From: Escherichia phage Bp7
Length of the DNA stretch: 64,000 nucleotides
Strand: one strand, 5' to 3'
Sequence record: NC_019500.1
Of this stretch, positions 32,136 through 40,363 are shown in pieces. A program made the position numbers and the translations under genes. Each line of letters begins with the position of its first letter. Within the stretch, counting starts at the first letter, position 1. The notes under the pieces are model-generated. The model ran no database searches. It was not told the origin of the DNA and saw only the letters and a list, made by a program, of their open reading frames with translations.

Positions 32136-32380
32136 TATTCGTCGTCCTCGTCATCATCCGCATCGTCAGATTCTTTTTTGTCTTTCTTATCTGCTTTATC
32201 GGATTTTTCGTCGTCTTCGTCATCTTCGTCAGCTTCTTCGCCTTCAATCATAACGGAGCGAGCAATTTCTGCTTTACGGGCTTCAATCAAAGCGGTTACT
32301 CGAGATTCGATAAGCGGGGCTGCTGCTTTACGAACTGCTACGAGGTCGTTTGATTTAATAGCTTCGATTAAATCTTCCAT
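32135..32380 (-). CDS. 67: prohead core protein
   Basis: 81 aa, acidic tail; synteny. Confidence 0.8.
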
Positions 32381-33953
32381 TAGAAATCCTCTTCTTCTTC
32401 ATCTGGGTTTTGGAAACGAGCCTCTTTAGACTCTTCTTCAATTTGCTTAGCTTCTTGATTAATTTCTTCGTCGGTCATTTGGAGGAAATCTTTCATAGCC
32501 GTTTGATGTGAAATGTACTTACCAATAAATGGTTCAGCCATCGTTAGCATATTGATTCTGCGTTCCATGATTTCAGCATCTTTCATTTCACTGAAATAGC
32601 TATCACGGTTAAACGTAACTTTAATATTATTTATTTCCTTTTCCCACTCATCTTCTGTAATAATCTTTTTAAGAATGAGGTTTGTTTTTAACGGGTCTAG
32701 GAAAATTTCTTCAAATTTGTTTTGTAGTTGACGAATCCATTTAGAGAATTTTAATTCGTCACGAGTGATTGCTGTACCGGCATCAAACATAACACCAGAA
32801 TTAGACTCGCTAGGGATACGTGATTCAGGAACACGCAACGCACGGTAAAGTGCTGTGCGGAAATAAAGAACGTCATCCATATCACTCATACCAGTAGCAC
32901 CTGGCATTGTATCAACTTCTGTTACCGCTTTACCATCACGACGTTGCAACCAATAGTCTTCAGTCATGGACATATTGTGTTGTTGGTTTTTAATTTTACC
33001 TGTCGAAGCATCATACACCACACGGTTTTTCATCGTGTTCATGATATGTTGCATTTGTGCTGCAGCCTTACGTGAAGGCATATTACCTGTATCGATATAA
33101 AACACACGACGGTCAGGAGCACGTGTAATACGGTAGATGACCATTGCGTCTTCCATCAATTTAAGCTGGTTTGCAGGCTTAATAGCACGTTGCAAATAGC
33201 CAATGATGTTTTTACCACAACAATCTAATAATCCAGAATGAGCATAAACCACTGCAGCACGAGGAATTTTAACTTTAGTCCCGGCTGAATAAATGCGTCC
33301 ATCTGCGCAATAGCTTTCATGACCTGTGTCGTAAACGAAAAACTCGCGATATCCGTCTACAACTTTAACGCCATCTTCCATACGTGTAACGATTTCACGA
33401 ATATATTGGACTTGGCGTGGGTCTAAGCGACGAAGCTCTTGTACGCCATCTTTCATTTTTTTAGGGTTTATAATTTTATGAAAGAAAATTCTTGAGTCTA
33501 CATACCAGCGTTGGAAATGGTCAGTGCCTTTACGTTGGAAATTTAAAAGGTTTAAAACTTCACTGAATTCGGCCAAGATTTTATCTTTAATTGCTTGACT
33601 AAATTCTGTCCCGTCTAAATTCAATGCAACTACTTCTTTATCATCTCATAGACAATAGCGTCAGACACAATTTCCTGTACGGCGTTGTCGACTTCATAGT
33701 TGTTCATTAAATTACGGTAGGTATCAATAAGTTCCCTGGTATTTTTAACTTCAGGCTCATTACTACCAAACATCTGTTGCATAAGAGCATTATAAGGAAT
33801 ATTTTGCTCTTGTGTCTCAATTTCGCGAGCGCCATCATCAAGCTTAGGTGCGGTGACAGACTCTAAATTGTTATTAATTTGTTGTTTGAATTCTTTTTCG
33901 TCTTCATTAGCCCATGGCTTAAGAAAACTTAATATTGTATTAAAGTTTGCCAT
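32380..33953 (-). CDS. 20: portal vertex protein with apparent single-base deletion near 33642-33647
   Basis: N-terminal 107 aa and C-terminal 414 aa lie in adjacent frames and together align to T4 gp20 (about 524 aa). Confidence 0.88.
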
Positions 33954-34002
33954 TAGAGTCTCCGATGAATGGGATAAGGAGCCGAAGCTCCTTGATAATT
34001 CT

Positions 34003-34010
34003 ATTTATAC
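34003..34010 (-). promoter_or_regulatory. late promoter TATAAATA upstream of gene 20, followed by leader hairpin
   Basis: ctatttatac plus strand; hairpin AGGAGCCGAAGCTCCT at 33976-33993. Confidence 0.45.
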
Positions 34011-34592
34011 TCATTCATTTTCATGTTTGTGATAACGTGTTATAGCCGAACGAGTTGATTCAACACCACAGATAGGGCAAATCATCCTTGGCTGATTAAT
34101 CTTTTTGCCTTTAGCCGGATGTTCTTTACCAAACATCGGATTACCTTCACCAGACATAGCTTTGGCTTGGTCTGGTCGCTTACGTCCTTTTAGAGCTTTA
34201 GAATGTTCAGGCCTCTTTTTACCTAACCTACAATCTCTTTGTAGCTGTTTGGCATGTTCACTCATTGGAATCCCTTTACGAGACATTCCAAAGAACCCGT
34301 CAGGCTGAGCTAATGACATATTTATATAGTTTTTAGATTTAACTACATTATACTTTATTTGAAGCTCTTTCTCAGCTATACGAGCTTCTTTATCGGTTTC
34401 AAATAAAGATAAAATTCTGGTTTTGAAAAGGTGCGGATTTTCTTTACGTTCTAGATTCCAAATCTTTTTATATGCTTGGGATAATACAGAACCATTATAT
34501 CCTTCTTTGAGAATCCTTTCAACGTATGTTGAGCCAATATAACGACGGGGTAGTTTAGACCCCGTGTATATGGTTAAGTAAGTACAATACAT
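34011..34592 (-). CDS. GIY-YIG (Seg-like) homing endonuclease
   Basis: N-terminal YLTIYTGSKLPRRYIGST, basic C-terminal DNA-binding region; intergenic between 20 and 19. Confidence 0.6.
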   Translation of the reverse strand: MYCTYLTIYTGSKLPRRYIGSTYVERILKEGYNGSVLSQAYKKIWNLERKENPHLFKTRILSLFETDKEARIAEKELQIKYNVVKSKNYINMSLAQPDGFFGMSRKGIPMSEHAKQLQRDCRLGKKRPEHSKALKGRKRPDQAKAMSGEGNPMFGKEHPAKGKKINQPRMICPICGVESTRSAITRYHKHENE

Positions 34593-34659
34593 TCTAAACT
34601 CCTTGACTTCATTGTTTGAATGTATTTATACTATCATAATTTGCTATAAAAGTAAAAAC

Positions 34660-35151
34660 TTATTCCCACCAGTCAATAGCAAATGTGCTTTCAAATGTTT
34701 CTACCTCGTTATTCGAGTCCCAGTCCATCTGGACTTCACCAACGTTAGTAGGCCATAAGCCGTAAATTGTAACTTCTTTGGTCACAGTCTTGCCGTCACG
34801 ATGGAACTGGCGAACTACTGCTTGTTTCTTATATTCTGCAGGTGCTGCACCGGTAATTTCATTGGTCATACCGTGACAGAGATTCTGCCAATCGACAATT
34901 GCTTGACGGGTGTCATGTGCATCATCGTTATAAATGGTAATTGTCCAATCATCAAACGTACGGTCACCAGCTACGTTAATTTTACGGTTCATGTAGCCAA
35001 CCGGTACTTTTTCTACAATGCCTGCCGGCATAGGGGCTGCTTTACATTTAAAGCTAAAGTTTTTACCGAGAAATGGAATTTCCACTTCGAAAAGGTTAGG
35101 GCGTGCAAAGTCACCTGACTCGAAGGCCCTAGTGATATCGGTCAACTCCAT
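34660..35151 (-). CDS. 19: tail tube protein
   Basis: 163 aa; matches remembered T4 gp19 (RAFESGDFARPNLF). Confidence 0.95.
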   Translation of the reverse strand: MELTDITRAFESGDFARPNLFEVEIPFLGKNFSFKCKAAPMPAGIVEKVPVGYMNRKINVAGDRTFDDWTITIYNDDAHDTRQAIVDWQNLCHGMTNEITGAAPAEYKKQAVVRQFHRDGKTVTKEVTIYGLWPTNVGEVQMDWDSNNEVETFESTFAIDWWE

Positions 35152-35188
35152 TGGCGACCTCCATCTAAGTTAAATTCTTGATAAGTTT

Positions 35189-35860
35189 TCATGATAGTTT
35201 TCCATTTGGTTGTTTTGATTCAATCATATTTATAAGAGTTTTTAAGCTCATCCCACAGCCATCTGATTTGGAAAGATTTTCTTCCCACGGAATAATTTGC
35301 AAGTTACAAATATGGCCTATATGTTCTGCGGGTATTTTATTATCATAACCAAATTTCTTAGATATTATATGGTCTAATTGATAAGCACCTTTGACTCCGC
35401 ACTTGCCTATTTTAGTAAAATTCTTCATTTTACTTATTTCATTTCTATATTTATACTGATGACGCTTGACATCCATACAATATTTATGATATTTTTTCTT
35501 ATCAATCCAGTGTTCTTTAGATTTGAGACCTTTACCTGTTCTATTTTTGGAAATTTTAGGCCCTTTGGTTTTACGGATTTTTATGCCTTCATCAGAATTC
35601 CAATATTCTTTTCTTGTTTCTGAATAGACTTCCCAGCGATGTTCTTTACAGAACTTAGAATTTGTTTCATTAAGACGTCCTTTTGTTACAGTATAATAAG
35701 TGCCACATTTATCACATTTACATGTAACAGCAATTTTTCCAGGACAATCTTCTAATTTTATTAAATGAGAGCTTCCACTTTTAACTTGATATCCGAGATT
35801 TTTAAAAGCAGAAACATTGCGATTCGTTATAGGTATTTCAAATAGAGTATTAGTAATCAT
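35189..35860 (-). CDS. HNH homing endonuclease with N-terminal Cys cluster
   Basis: QLDHIISKKFGYDNKIPAEHIGHICNLQIIPWEENLSKS; late-promoter-like TATAAATA at 35866-35873. Confidence 0.75.
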   Translation of the reverse strand: MITNTLFEIPITNRNVSAFKNLGYQVKSGSSHLIKLEDCPGKIAVTCKCDKCGTYYTVTKGRLNETNSKFCKEHRWEVYSETRKEYWNSDEGIKIRKTKGPKISKNRTGKGLKSKEHWIDKKKYHKYCMDVKRHQYKYRNEISKMKNFTKIGKCGVKGAYQLDHIISKKFGYDNKIPAEHIGHICNLQIIPWEENLSKSDGCGMSLKTLINMIESKQPNGKLS

Positions 35861-36041
35861 ACTTATATTTATATACCAGAAAGTCGCAGGATTGAGCCTG
35901 CGACGTTTTTAGTTATACAGTTGATAAATCATATTCCTAAAGAATAATCAACCCCAGGCGCAATTCTGCGTGATGTACGCTGTAACCAAACTCATGGTAT
36001 AATGGTTTTAGGTTCTTTATATTACAGCCTGGGATAATAGA

Positions 36042-38024
36042 TTATACTAAAGGTCCAATCAATTCATCAAAGTCAGCACCAGTGCTCGTCGCGACGAAAT
36101 TCAATGTAATATAGTTAATACTGCGAGCAGGTTTAACATAGATATTAGCAATAAACTCGTTACGGTCGATAACCGCAGGGGTGTTCACTGTAGTATCACA
36201 AACCACACGTCCTTCATAAATCCCACCAAGTGCCTTAATACCATCTAAGTACTGAGAAACTTCCATACGGAAGCTTGAACGAGTGAAGTTGTCGTTCAAT
36301 TCAAACAGTTTATATTTAGAGGCATCACCGATATTTTTCTTAAGCATGTTGAACAGACGGCGAACGTTAATGTGGTCCATCGGAGATGGAACTTTGGTTG
36401 CAGTCTTATCACCAAACAATACGAAACCATCGCCACCAGCAAAACCAACAACCGGGTTAATAGCTTCTTGGTACATGCGGTCACGTTGAGCTTGGCGCGG
36501 TTCAATTGCCAATTTCAGAACGTTAAGAATCTGGCCACGGTTATAACCTGCCGGAGACATCCAAGGCTGAGAAACATCATCAGTACGTGCACACAAACCA
36601 GCCATATCAGCGGCCAGAGGCACCCAACGGTTTACGTCATTATATTTGTCATACTGATATTTATAGTTACCATCAATAGCAGCATAAGTGGTGCTAATGT
36701 TCATGTTGTTGGCATCGAAAGTACCTGCACCGGTACGCCAGTCGATAAGATTATCTACTGCACGAGTCAATGGAACGTTAACCAACAGTCCTTTAGGAGG
36801 AGAAATAAATGCCAAGCAATCCTGACGTTCATCAGCAATACTAACAACGTGTTTCTGGACTGTAGAAGCAACTTCATCACCTTCACCAGCAACAGCACCA
36901 GCAATCAAAAGGTTAATATGGAGTGCTTCACGGTCGGCAAACAAATCCCAACCCTGCATCAAATCACCTGCAGTAACCTGGTCGTTAGCAGATACACCAC
37001 CCATAAGATTGATGATACCACTAAAACCGGCCGGCCAGTTCAGAGAGGTAGCGAAGATATAGTTAGAAGTACCTTTAGCGAAATAGTCGTCAAGATAAAT
37101 GTTATTACCGTAAACGTCTTTTTCACCTTCTTTGGTAGAAAGTACGACAGATTCTACGATAGCGCCGTCACGACGAACAATAATCGCGTATTGGTCATCT
37201 GTTTGTGGGCCGTAATTAAATACCGCCTTGGCAATAGAAGCACGAGTACCGCCATTTGGATAAATATCCAACATTTTAGTAGAACCAGCGTCATAAGCCG
37301 CTTTAGAAACAATTTCAACTTCCAGAGTACTACCAATTTCACCAGGATAAAGGGCGACCACACCAGGCATACCAAACTGTTTAAGAGATGCTTGGAATTC
37401 CAGGGAAGTAATAACTTCTTCACTGTTCTCTGCTTCAGTCAACAGAATACCGGAATCGGTTACAATTTTACCGACAGTAATAGTACCAGAAACACCGGAA
37501 GAGGCAGAAGTAACTTCAGCAGTCCACGCAGGGCCTAGGTTCGGATACTGGTTAACAGAACGAGCATAAGAAATAATCTTGCCGGTAGGAATAAACACTG
37601 ATAGAATTTTACCGTCTGTATCGACCGAAGTTACACGACCTTCAGATTCAACAACAGTCTGGTTATATTTGATATTAATTTTATCACCTACCGCATAGTT
37701 AGAACCTGCAGTAGTAATAGTGGTTTGGACGTTACCTGCTACCGGAGACGCGTTTTTAGCGAATTCACGGTTAACAACACGAACAGTACGAAGGTCGTTA
37801 CCATACTGGAGGAAGTTCATACCCGACATGAAGTAATCAGCAACTTCGTTATTAGGACCTCCAAATAAGTCGACCAGTTCAACTTCATTAGTAATCTGAG
37901 TTACCTGGAAAGCAGGGCCCCACTGGAATTTACCAACCAGCGCTGCACGACCCGTTGCGTTACGAACGACAGTACTCTGTACGGACGTTTCTTTGAGCTC
38001 AATGCCCGGTGATAATAAAGACAT
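36042..38024 (-). CDS. 18: contractile tail sheath protein
   Basis: 660 aa; MSLLSPGIELKETSVQSTVV as T4 gp18. Confidence 0.97.
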   Translation of the reverse strand: MSLLSPGIELKETSVQSTVVRNATGRAALVGKFQWGPAFQVTQITNEVELVDLFGGPNNEVADYFMSGMNFLQYGNDLRTVRVVNREFAKNASPVAGNVQTTITTAGSNYAVGDKINIKYNQTVVESEGRVTSVDTDGKILSVFIPTGKIISYARSVNQYPNLGPAWTAEVTSASSGVSGTITVGKIVTDSGILLTEAENSEEVITSLEFQASLKQFGMPGVVALYPGEIGSTLEVEIVSKAAYDAGSTKMLDIYPNGGTRASIAKAVFNYGPQTDDQYAIIVRRDGAIVESVVLSTKEGEKDVYGNNIYLDDYFAKGTSNYIFATSLNWPAGFSGIINLMGGVSANDQVTAGDLMQGWDLFADREALHINLLIAGAVAGEGDEVASTVQKHVVSIADERQDCLAFISPPKGLLVNVPLTRAVDNLIDWRTGAGTFDANNMNISTTYAAIDGNYKYQYDKYNDVNRWVPLAADMAGLCARTDDVSQPWMSPAGYNRGQILNVLKLAIEPRQAQRDRMYQEAINPVVGFAGGDGFVLFGDKTATKVPSPMDHINVRRLFNMLKKNIGDASKYKLFELNDNFTRSSFRMEVSQYLDGIKALGGIYEGRVVCDTTVNTPAVIDRNEFIANIYVKPARSINYITLNFVATSTGADFDELIGPLV

Positions 38025-38056: not shown

Positions 38057-40363
<2,307 letters not shown>

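Follow-up and report, generated by a model that had tools for sequence, protein, structure and literature searches.

Two independent free-standing homing endonuclease genes of different classes very probably bracket the tail-tube gene 19 of Escherichia phage Bp7

SegF and SegG are free-standing GIY-YIG enzymes of phage T4 with intronless homing and marker exclusion. In their homing, the DNA lying between target and insertion is co-converted (PMC2988022). Enzymes of the Mob and I-HmuI types nick one strand (PMC2988022), and in the so-called homing endonuclease gene (HEG) islands endonuclease genes belonging to different classes lie on both sides of an essential structural gene (Barth, Dunham and Seed 2023, PMC10448857). 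In the 64,000 nucleotides (nt) of Escherichia phage Bp7 (NC_019500.1) analyzed here, hereafter the window, the essential gene 19 is likewise very probably bracketed, according to the model proposed below, by two free-standing homing endonuclease genes that are independent and differ in class, GIY-YIG on one side and HNH on the other. Both genes are known kinds of ordinary phage mobile element, and the locus is empty in T4, where nothing is found at either junction. A megablast search with positions 33600-36100, which matched 51 phage records, places the window in a JS98-like, T4-type coliphage of the genus Dhakavirus; three of the 51 records cover at least 80% of the query, and coverage is 44% in nearly all the others listed. 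The genes of the locus are:

32380-33953, minus strand: gp20
34011-34592, minus strand: open reading frame (ORF) of 193 amino acids (aa), GIY-YIG (SegE-like), between gp19 and gp20
34660-35151, minus strand: gp19, tail tube protein, a conserved essential gene (Pfam Phage_T4_gp19, E=2.8e-10)
35189-35860, minus strand: 223-aa HNH-type ORF, between gp18 and gp19
36042-38024, minus strand: gp18
38057-39892, minus strand: gp17

An earlier note on this DNA had placed a Seg-like GIY-YIG gene between genes 20 and 19 and an HNH gene with an N-terminal Cys cluster between genes 19 and 18, each with a late-promoter-like sequence upstream, and had read the arrangement as a sign of active marker exclusion. 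ORFs of 193 aa, with homology to SegE, and of 223 aa, with the family-invariant residues D163, H164, N186, and N195, are present at these two places; the Cys cluster comprises C47, C49, C52, C71, and H74, among which C49, C52, and C71 are conserved in the family; and TATAAATA occurs on the minus strand at exactly 34623-34630 and 35866-35873. Comparison of the 20-19-18 intervals shows that both ORFs are absent from the near-identical phage WG01 and variably present in relatives. Regarding hidden Markov model (HMM) searches, the outcome is mixed, since the GIY-YIG ORF stays below threshold in Pfam and the HNH ORF has no match there, while profile and structure evidence supports the GIY-YIG fold strongly and the HNH fold more weakly. 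Routine domain searches being nearly null for both ORFs, the result comes close to what the note itself had named as speaking against it, namely domain searches failing to support nuclease folds; taken as a whole, its interpretation is supported.

The GIY-YIG assignment of the 193-aa ORF is regarded as secure. The protein has a catalytic domain (residues ~1-100), followed by a DNA-binding region made of NUMOD3-like repeats (~104-165) and a zinc finger CxxC...HxH (C172, C175, H188, H190). In Pfam, SegE_GIY-YIG (E=0.0046, 17.6 bits against a cut-off of 25) and NUMOD3 (E=0.011) are both sub-threshold, and single-sequence searches against NCBIfam and the PDB gave no match. However, PHROGs identifies the ORF as a homing endonuclease (1e-29), and T4 SegE is related to it both by BLASTP (E=2e-7, 38% identity over 90 aa) and by hhalign against the family (probability 94.2%, E=1.1e-7). 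Family alignments were built from protein searches, and structures were predicted for both ORFs. Among 57 relatives of the GIY-YIG ORF, Y9, Y18, E74, and N91 are invariant and NUMOD3 is significant in 42 (best 8e-26); the candidate for the conserved Arg of the motif, R26, is shared by a majority of the same relatives but is not invariant, which does not favor the assignment. The family profile matches the DNA-binding domain of I-TevI (1i3j, E=0.0068), and structure prediction strongly supports the GIY-YIG alpha/beta catalytic fold.

As in T4 SegE and the Seg family generally, the catalytic domain is homologous and of GIY-YIG fold, and the gene is intergenic, lies beside a conserved gene, is variably present in close relatives, and has a late promoter; its inferred target would also be in the neighboring gene and not at the insertion point (PMC2988022). 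Unlike in T4, the gene stands between 19 and 20, where T4 has no gene at all. The similarity to SegE is limited to the 90 residues mentioned above, the C-terminal end differing here by its C2H2-like zinc finger, and the inferred target would lie 35-70 base pairs (bp) from the insertion, as opposed to the hundreds of bp reported for T4 Seg enzymes. With I-TevI, the endonuclease of the td intron of T4, the ORF shares the NUMOD3-type DNA-binding region, but I-TevI is intron-encoded whereas the present gene is free-standing, and the similarity of the catalytic domains is undetectable by HMM: when the family was aligned by hhalign with an approximate I-TevI sequence, only the NUMOD3 region aligned, at 41% probability, with no support for the catalytic domain.

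The GIY-YIG gene is part of a cassette with the following features:

34011-34659, minus strand: GIY-YIG cassette of 649 bp, comprising the ORF, its own Shine-Dalgarno sequence, and its late promoter, inserted at the gene 19 stop codon
34599-34604, minus strand: Shine-Dalgarno sequence AAGGAG of the GIY-YIG gene, inside the cassette
34623-34630, minus strand: late promoter TATAAATA of the GIY-YIG gene, inside the cassette
34660-34723, minus strand: last 64 nt of gene 19 (nt 429-492), proposed as an obligatory co-conversion tract near whose upstream edge the GIY-YIG target would lie

The window shares 99-100% identity over genes 20 and 19 with WG01, which lacks both ORFs, and is collinear with that phage except for the two endonuclease cassettes. 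Compared with WG01, the window is unaligned at 34017-34657 in the GIY-YIG cassette, the boundary of which is ambiguous within a shared GAATGA. This cassette is absent from WG01, JS98, and IME08, and it is identical at 649 of 649 positions in the window, vB_EcoM_005, IME540, and QL01; the gene is thus found in four Dhakaviruses including the window phage and is absent from most of the 51 records matched. In Pectobacterium phage PM2, the layout of the late promoter and Shine-Dalgarno sequence of the GIY-YIG gene matches that of the window.

The insertion is accompanied by a tract of synonymous changes at the end of gene 19. Between the GIY-positive phages and the GIY-free WG01, 15 differences, all synonymous, are located in the last 64 nt of the gene against nine in the other 428 nt (Fisher p=5.6e-9 for the excess over the rest of the gene), and no difference at all is found in these 64 nt among the four GIY-positive phages. 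The gp19 protein is identical across all seven Dhakaviruses compared, and the block includes Ser switches between TCN and AGY codons, which single silent steps cannot produce. A comparable situation has arisen independently in Karamvirus, where Entb_43 (GIY-positive) and Ent31 (GIY-negative) encode an identical gp19 protein and differ by 12 silent changes at nt 429-459, i.e., in a block that starts at the same nt 429 as in Dhakavirus, nt 460-492 being identical. Since synonymous blocks begin at nt 429 in both genera, it is most simply supposed that the GIY-YIG enzyme has a candidate target near nt 420-460 of gene 19, within the codons of the conserved DWDSNNEVETFE and at a distance of 35-70 bp from the insertion. 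The block beginning at nt 429 would then probably mark the zone of cleavage and co-conversion. Three considerations tell against this proposal: the Acinetobacter pair MD-2021a and AbTZA1 is too divergent overall to provide a third replicate of the synonymous block; the GIY-positive gene 19 alleles of Dhakavirus and Karamvirus do not share one common "immune" sequence; and the block could be a passively imported donor tract instead of a selected immunity site. When IMG/VR was scanned with the end of gene 19 in its carrier and empty forms, only genomes already in the set were recovered.

The HNH assignment of the 223-aa ORF is probable, and two parts of the protein are concerned:

35267-35398, minus strand: ββα-Me core of the HNH protein, C-terminal, residues 155-198, with D163, H164, N186, and N195
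35639-35722, minus strand: zinc ribbon CxCxxC...CxxH of the HNH protein, in the N-terminal beta-rich domain

The predicted model (predicted local distance difference test score of 86) shows an N-terminal beta-rich domain and a C-terminal beta-beta-alpha unit, on which the four residues named above are predicted to sit. D163, H164, N186 (with L187), and N195 are invariant in family alignments of 28, 92, and 120 members. The nearest solved folds are those of nicking HNH enzymes, although structure prediction appears to support this fold more weakly than that of the GIY-YIG protein. In Pfam searches with the relatives, HNH_4 was found in four of 28 (best 9.5e-4), HNH in two of 28, and an AI2M-like HNH domain in one of 92, all of them weak matches, and three relatives bear the JGI name McrA. 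The N-terminal modules differ from one relative to another (helix-turn-helix, NUMOD3, or zinc ribbon), as in modular homing enzymes. With T4 Mob and the I-HmuI-type nickases, the ORF has in common the ββα-Me/HNH core with its DH...N...N signature and a free-standing position beside an essential gene. In contrast with Mob, known here from its description, in which HNH comes first (PMC2988022), the zinc ribbon is first and HNH last, and the proteins form a family of their own, PHROG 5104, outside any Pfam HNH model.

It could be argued that the 223-aa ORF is not a nuclease but a zinc-ribbon DNA- or RNA-binding accessory of the tail or of late-gene expression, with a C-terminal motif that is merely HNH-like. 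Several results go in this direction and against a nuclease: the ORF itself has no match among Pfam, NCBIfam, or PDB sequence models; PHROG 5104 is annotated as "unknown function"; the whole-family profile gave only weak zinc-finger matches against PDB sequences and the core profile only leucine-rich repeats; and Foldseek found nothing significant for the model in the PDB. When the family was widened to 125 proteins by a family-alignment protein search, a precomputed HNH Pfam domain was found in none. The leucine-rich-repeat matches were rejected as spurious, because P-EIG-L-NLQ-L-L--N mimics the repeat consensus. The accessory role is regarded as highly improbable. An essential role for either ORF, e.g., the HNH protein as a helper of the nearby terminase, was rejected, since the near-identical WG01 lacks both, so that neither gene is essential. 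By tblastn, the HNH family was found in 242 phage records, and the entries listed are nearly all labelled "hypothetical". As a separate observation, residues 176-196 of the core (35273-35335, IPAEHIGHICNLQIIPWEEN) constitute an annotation trap, the family profile reaching E=7.6e-9 against Leptospira leucine-rich-repeat proteins. The homologue of Salmonella phage S16 is intact (206 aa, GTG start; positions 1501-2121 of sequence L015), only its last 321 nt being annotated.

The HNH gene also lies in a cassette, described by the following features:

35122-35151, minus strand: first 30 nt of gene 19, with the synonymous changes ACT AGG GCC TTC versus ACT CGT GCR TTT
35152-35907, minus strand: HNH cassette, comprising a hairpin, the late promoter, the ORF, and, for gene 19, a new leader that contains GGAGG
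35227-35234, minus strand: TATAAATA within the HNH ORF, toward its 3' end, 76 nt before the ATG of gene 19
35861-35873, minus strand: late promoter TATAAATA of the HNH gene (35866-35873), then the 5 nt TAAGT, then ATG, without Shine-Dalgarno sequence
35883-35904, minus strand: hairpin rich in G+C, with a stem of 8 bp and a loop of 6 nt, shortly before the HNH late promoter

This cassette (about 750 bp) stands in place of the ~51-nt promoter-proximal gene 19 leader of phages without the HNH gene, and the window is unaligned at 35155-35907 with WG01, JS98, IME08, and QL01. As the leader and promoter of gene 19 have been displaced, gene 19 would depend on transcripts that either run through the HNH gene or start inside it. 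The TATAAATA copy at 35227-35234 is thus a candidate replacement late promoter for gene 19; promoters embedded likewise within several T4 seg and mob genes have been described (PMC2988022). At 35900-35907 (minus strand), TATAACTA matches TATAAATA at seven of eight positions, near the place of gene 19's own late promoter in empty-site phages, and may be a mutated remnant of it. The G+C content is 30.4% in the HNH gene versus 44% in gene 19.

In T4, TATAAATA is found at -13 to -6 of late promoters (PMC1524935). The window has 21 copies of it against 7.2 +/- 2.8 expected, a number reached in none of 100 shuffles. Combined with the 5-nt gap before the start codon, this position means that the predicted late transcript begins at the A of the HNH AUG, and a leaderless late mRNA is the probable product of the HNH gene in the window subfamily. 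All eight members of this subfamily, which come from Dhakavirus, Karamvirus, and Serratia phages, keep a hairpin, TATAAATA, 5 nt, and ATG in this order, with hairpins of differing sequence. In the other subfamily (QL01, S16, pSs-1, KMB17), the start is GTG and is preceded by a Shine-Dalgarno sequence. On the other hand, the leaderless start is predicted from promoter spacing alone, the conservation of which could reflect shared ancestry. If it is leaderless, read-through transcripts from gene 18, which carry no Shine-Dalgarno sequence for the HNH gene, would never yield the enzyme. It is tentatively suggested, as a possibility to which we give somewhat less than even weight, that the window-type HNH proteins are an undescribed clade without Pfam model, dedicated to the 18/19 junction and expressed only from leaderless late mRNA. 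If true, such an mRNA would be a new way to keep a phage homing endonuclease silent until late infection; in the library searched, no paper joined the terms leaderless, homing endonuclease, and late promoter.

In form, the hairpin that precedes the HNH promoter resembles a terminator, which would end gene 18 transcripts, and in other genera a hairpin of different sequence accompanies the HNH cassette at the equivalent place. Its loop, CTCAAT in the window, is inverted to ATTGAG in a 99%-identical metagenome copy (L026, about 1190-1211), the stems being identical. TATAAATA is also found inside the endonuclease ORFs at 34319-34326, 35227-35234, and 35448-35455 (minus strand), which gives six coding-strand copies within 1.9 kb; those at 34319-34326 and 35448-35455 may simply reflect low G+C.

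Near the start of gene 19, codons 8-10 carry silent changes common to those of the phages compared in which a window-type HNH gene abuts gene 19. They are also present in Serratia phage WSPA, whose HNH protein is the closest full-length relative among the matches listed (69%). Residues 1-105 of the window HNH protein are 98% identical to vB_EcoM_005, while residues 106-150 are 20% identical to vB_EcoM_005 and 69% to WSPA. The HNH alleles are mosaics of exchanged modules, as would be expected if alleles recombine at a single site. The two Acinetobacter phages of the pair share 99.7% identity in the HNH gene, compared with 92% in gene 18 and 82% in gene 20. QL01 has a 38%-identical HNH paralogue at the other end of the 18-19 spacer, right after gene 18, indicating that this spacer was invaded at least twice.

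The HNH gene is under purifying selection, its differences being nearly all silent (synonymous:nonsynonymous 17:0 and 12:2). This bears on the possibility that both ORFs are decaying relics, intact by chance or recently inactivated, with no cutting and no marker exclusion today. Homing endonuclease genes are expected to degenerate once fixed, standard HMMs barely recognize either protein, and the HNH gene lacks a Shine-Dalgarno sequence, all of which would suit relics. However, both ORFs are full length and keep all the family-invariant catalytic residues, the HNH differences are of the kind just described, and the GIY-YIG cassette is identical in four genetic backgrounds while empty sites are common in the genus, which means that the elements are not fixed and have apparently spread recently. 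Decay of both genes is accordingly considered very unlikely.

With regard to their distribution, neither window ORF is present in JS98 and IME08. The order 18-HNH-19-GIY-20 is also found in Karamvirus Entb_43 and in Acinetobacter phage MD-2021a. The HNH gene is found alone in Serratia phages WSPA and 4S, in VR26, S16, pSs-1, and Ent31, and in one metagenome contig, and the GIY-YIG gene alone in Pectobacterium phage PM2. In every context examined, i.e., at least eight named genera, several unclassified phages, and two metagenome contigs, the HNH gene lies between 18 and 19. A 40%-identical paralogue of the GIY-YIG gene is located elsewhere in HX01, adjoining gene 39.

The occurrence of the three-gene order in Dhakavirus, Karamvirus, and an Acinetobacter phage, together with the HEG-island concept published for other phages (PMC10448857), raises the possibility that gene 19 and both endonuclease genes move as one island between genera, the tail-tube gene being the cargo. 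The locus shares with HEG islands not only an essential structural gene flanked by endonuclease genes of different classes but also allele exchange at one site and domain shuffling. It differs from them in that the would-be cargo shows no excess conservation and the two endonuclease genes also occur separately. Between the window and WSPA, gene 19 is 77% identical and its flanks 73% and 68%; between the window and Entb_43, the values are 75% for gene 19 and 78% and 72% for the flanks. Nucleotide identity to other genera is 72-85% for gene 19, 72-83% for gene 18, and 63-77% for gene 20. In addition, the conversion tracts are only about 30-64 nt long, and in QL01 the same GIY-YIG cassette is accompanied by an HNH gene of another subfamily, located elsewhere in the spacer. 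Whole gene 19 as the cargo of an island was rejected for lack of excess conservation between genera, joint movement of the three genes is unlikely, and the locus looks like two independent single-gene elements and not one mobile island.

From the sequences, we infer nuclease activity of either protein and, for both genes, cleavage, a target site, a mode of expression, and present-day mobility, along the following lines. In a mixed infection with a relative lacking the gene, each enzyme would cut or nick the empty allele in or next to gene 19, and recombinational repair from the carrier genome would copy the cassette and a short stretch beside it. The carrier, from which markers near gene 19 would then be inherited preferentially, is the phage whose genome would be protected at the GIY-YIG target by the synonymous changes. 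Translation of the HNH gene would be confined to the mRNA of its own promoter, to the exclusion of gene 18 read-through. When related phages co-infect, free-standing homing endonuclease genes influence which alleles survive, and hence they matter for phage evolution and for how stable phage-therapy cocktails of related T4-like phages are. The pairs formed by WG01 and the window phage and by Ent31 and Entb_43 provide natural before/after comparisons, by which the likely target of a SegE-like enzyme is narrowed down to ~30-60 bp of the tail-tube gene. A probable function can also be assigned to PHROG 5104, a widespread "hypothetical protein" family.

Other endonuclease genes, absent from the window, are found in the structural module of vB_EcoM_005 and IME08. 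In these sister Dhakaviruses, a segD-like gene lies between 23 and 24 and an HNH-like gene between 15 and 14, and their positions are:

L008 3535-4194 and 16463-17050: other endonuclease genes of vB_EcoM_005
L013 3292-3963: segD of IME08

JS98 and JS10 were reported in 2010 to be without such endonuclease genes (PMC2993671).

The part of the 18-19 spacer that is common to endonuclease-free relatives (35908-36041, minus strand) is unusually structured. The 184-nt 18-19 spacer has a folding energy of -51.7 kcal/mol (z = -5.0), with CCCAGGC/GCCUGGG closing the structure. It may serve in processing, in stability, or as a terminator, and an Rfam search of 33900-36100 gave no credible match. The last ~120 nt of gene 18 (36045-36160) exist in at least three allelic forms, namely that of the window, that of WG01, IME540, and JS98, and that of QL01 and IME08. 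This gene end is a second recombination hot spot by the HNH site, with no clean link to the presence of the HNH gene.

In the portal gene 20, a 1-nt deletion at about 33626-33632 (minus strand; GAGGATG to GA-GATG) causes a frameshift that splits the gene into halves at 33630-33953 and 32380-33624. Gene 20 is intact in vB_EcoM_005 and JS98, which were aligned directly, and a full-length single ORF is annotated in every relative examined. The deletion is probably a sequencing or assembly error, unless the genome is defective. At 33888-33889 of the same gene, a window-specific change of GAATAT to GAATTC replaces Tyr by Phe and creates a new EcoRI site that is absent from all six relatives compared.

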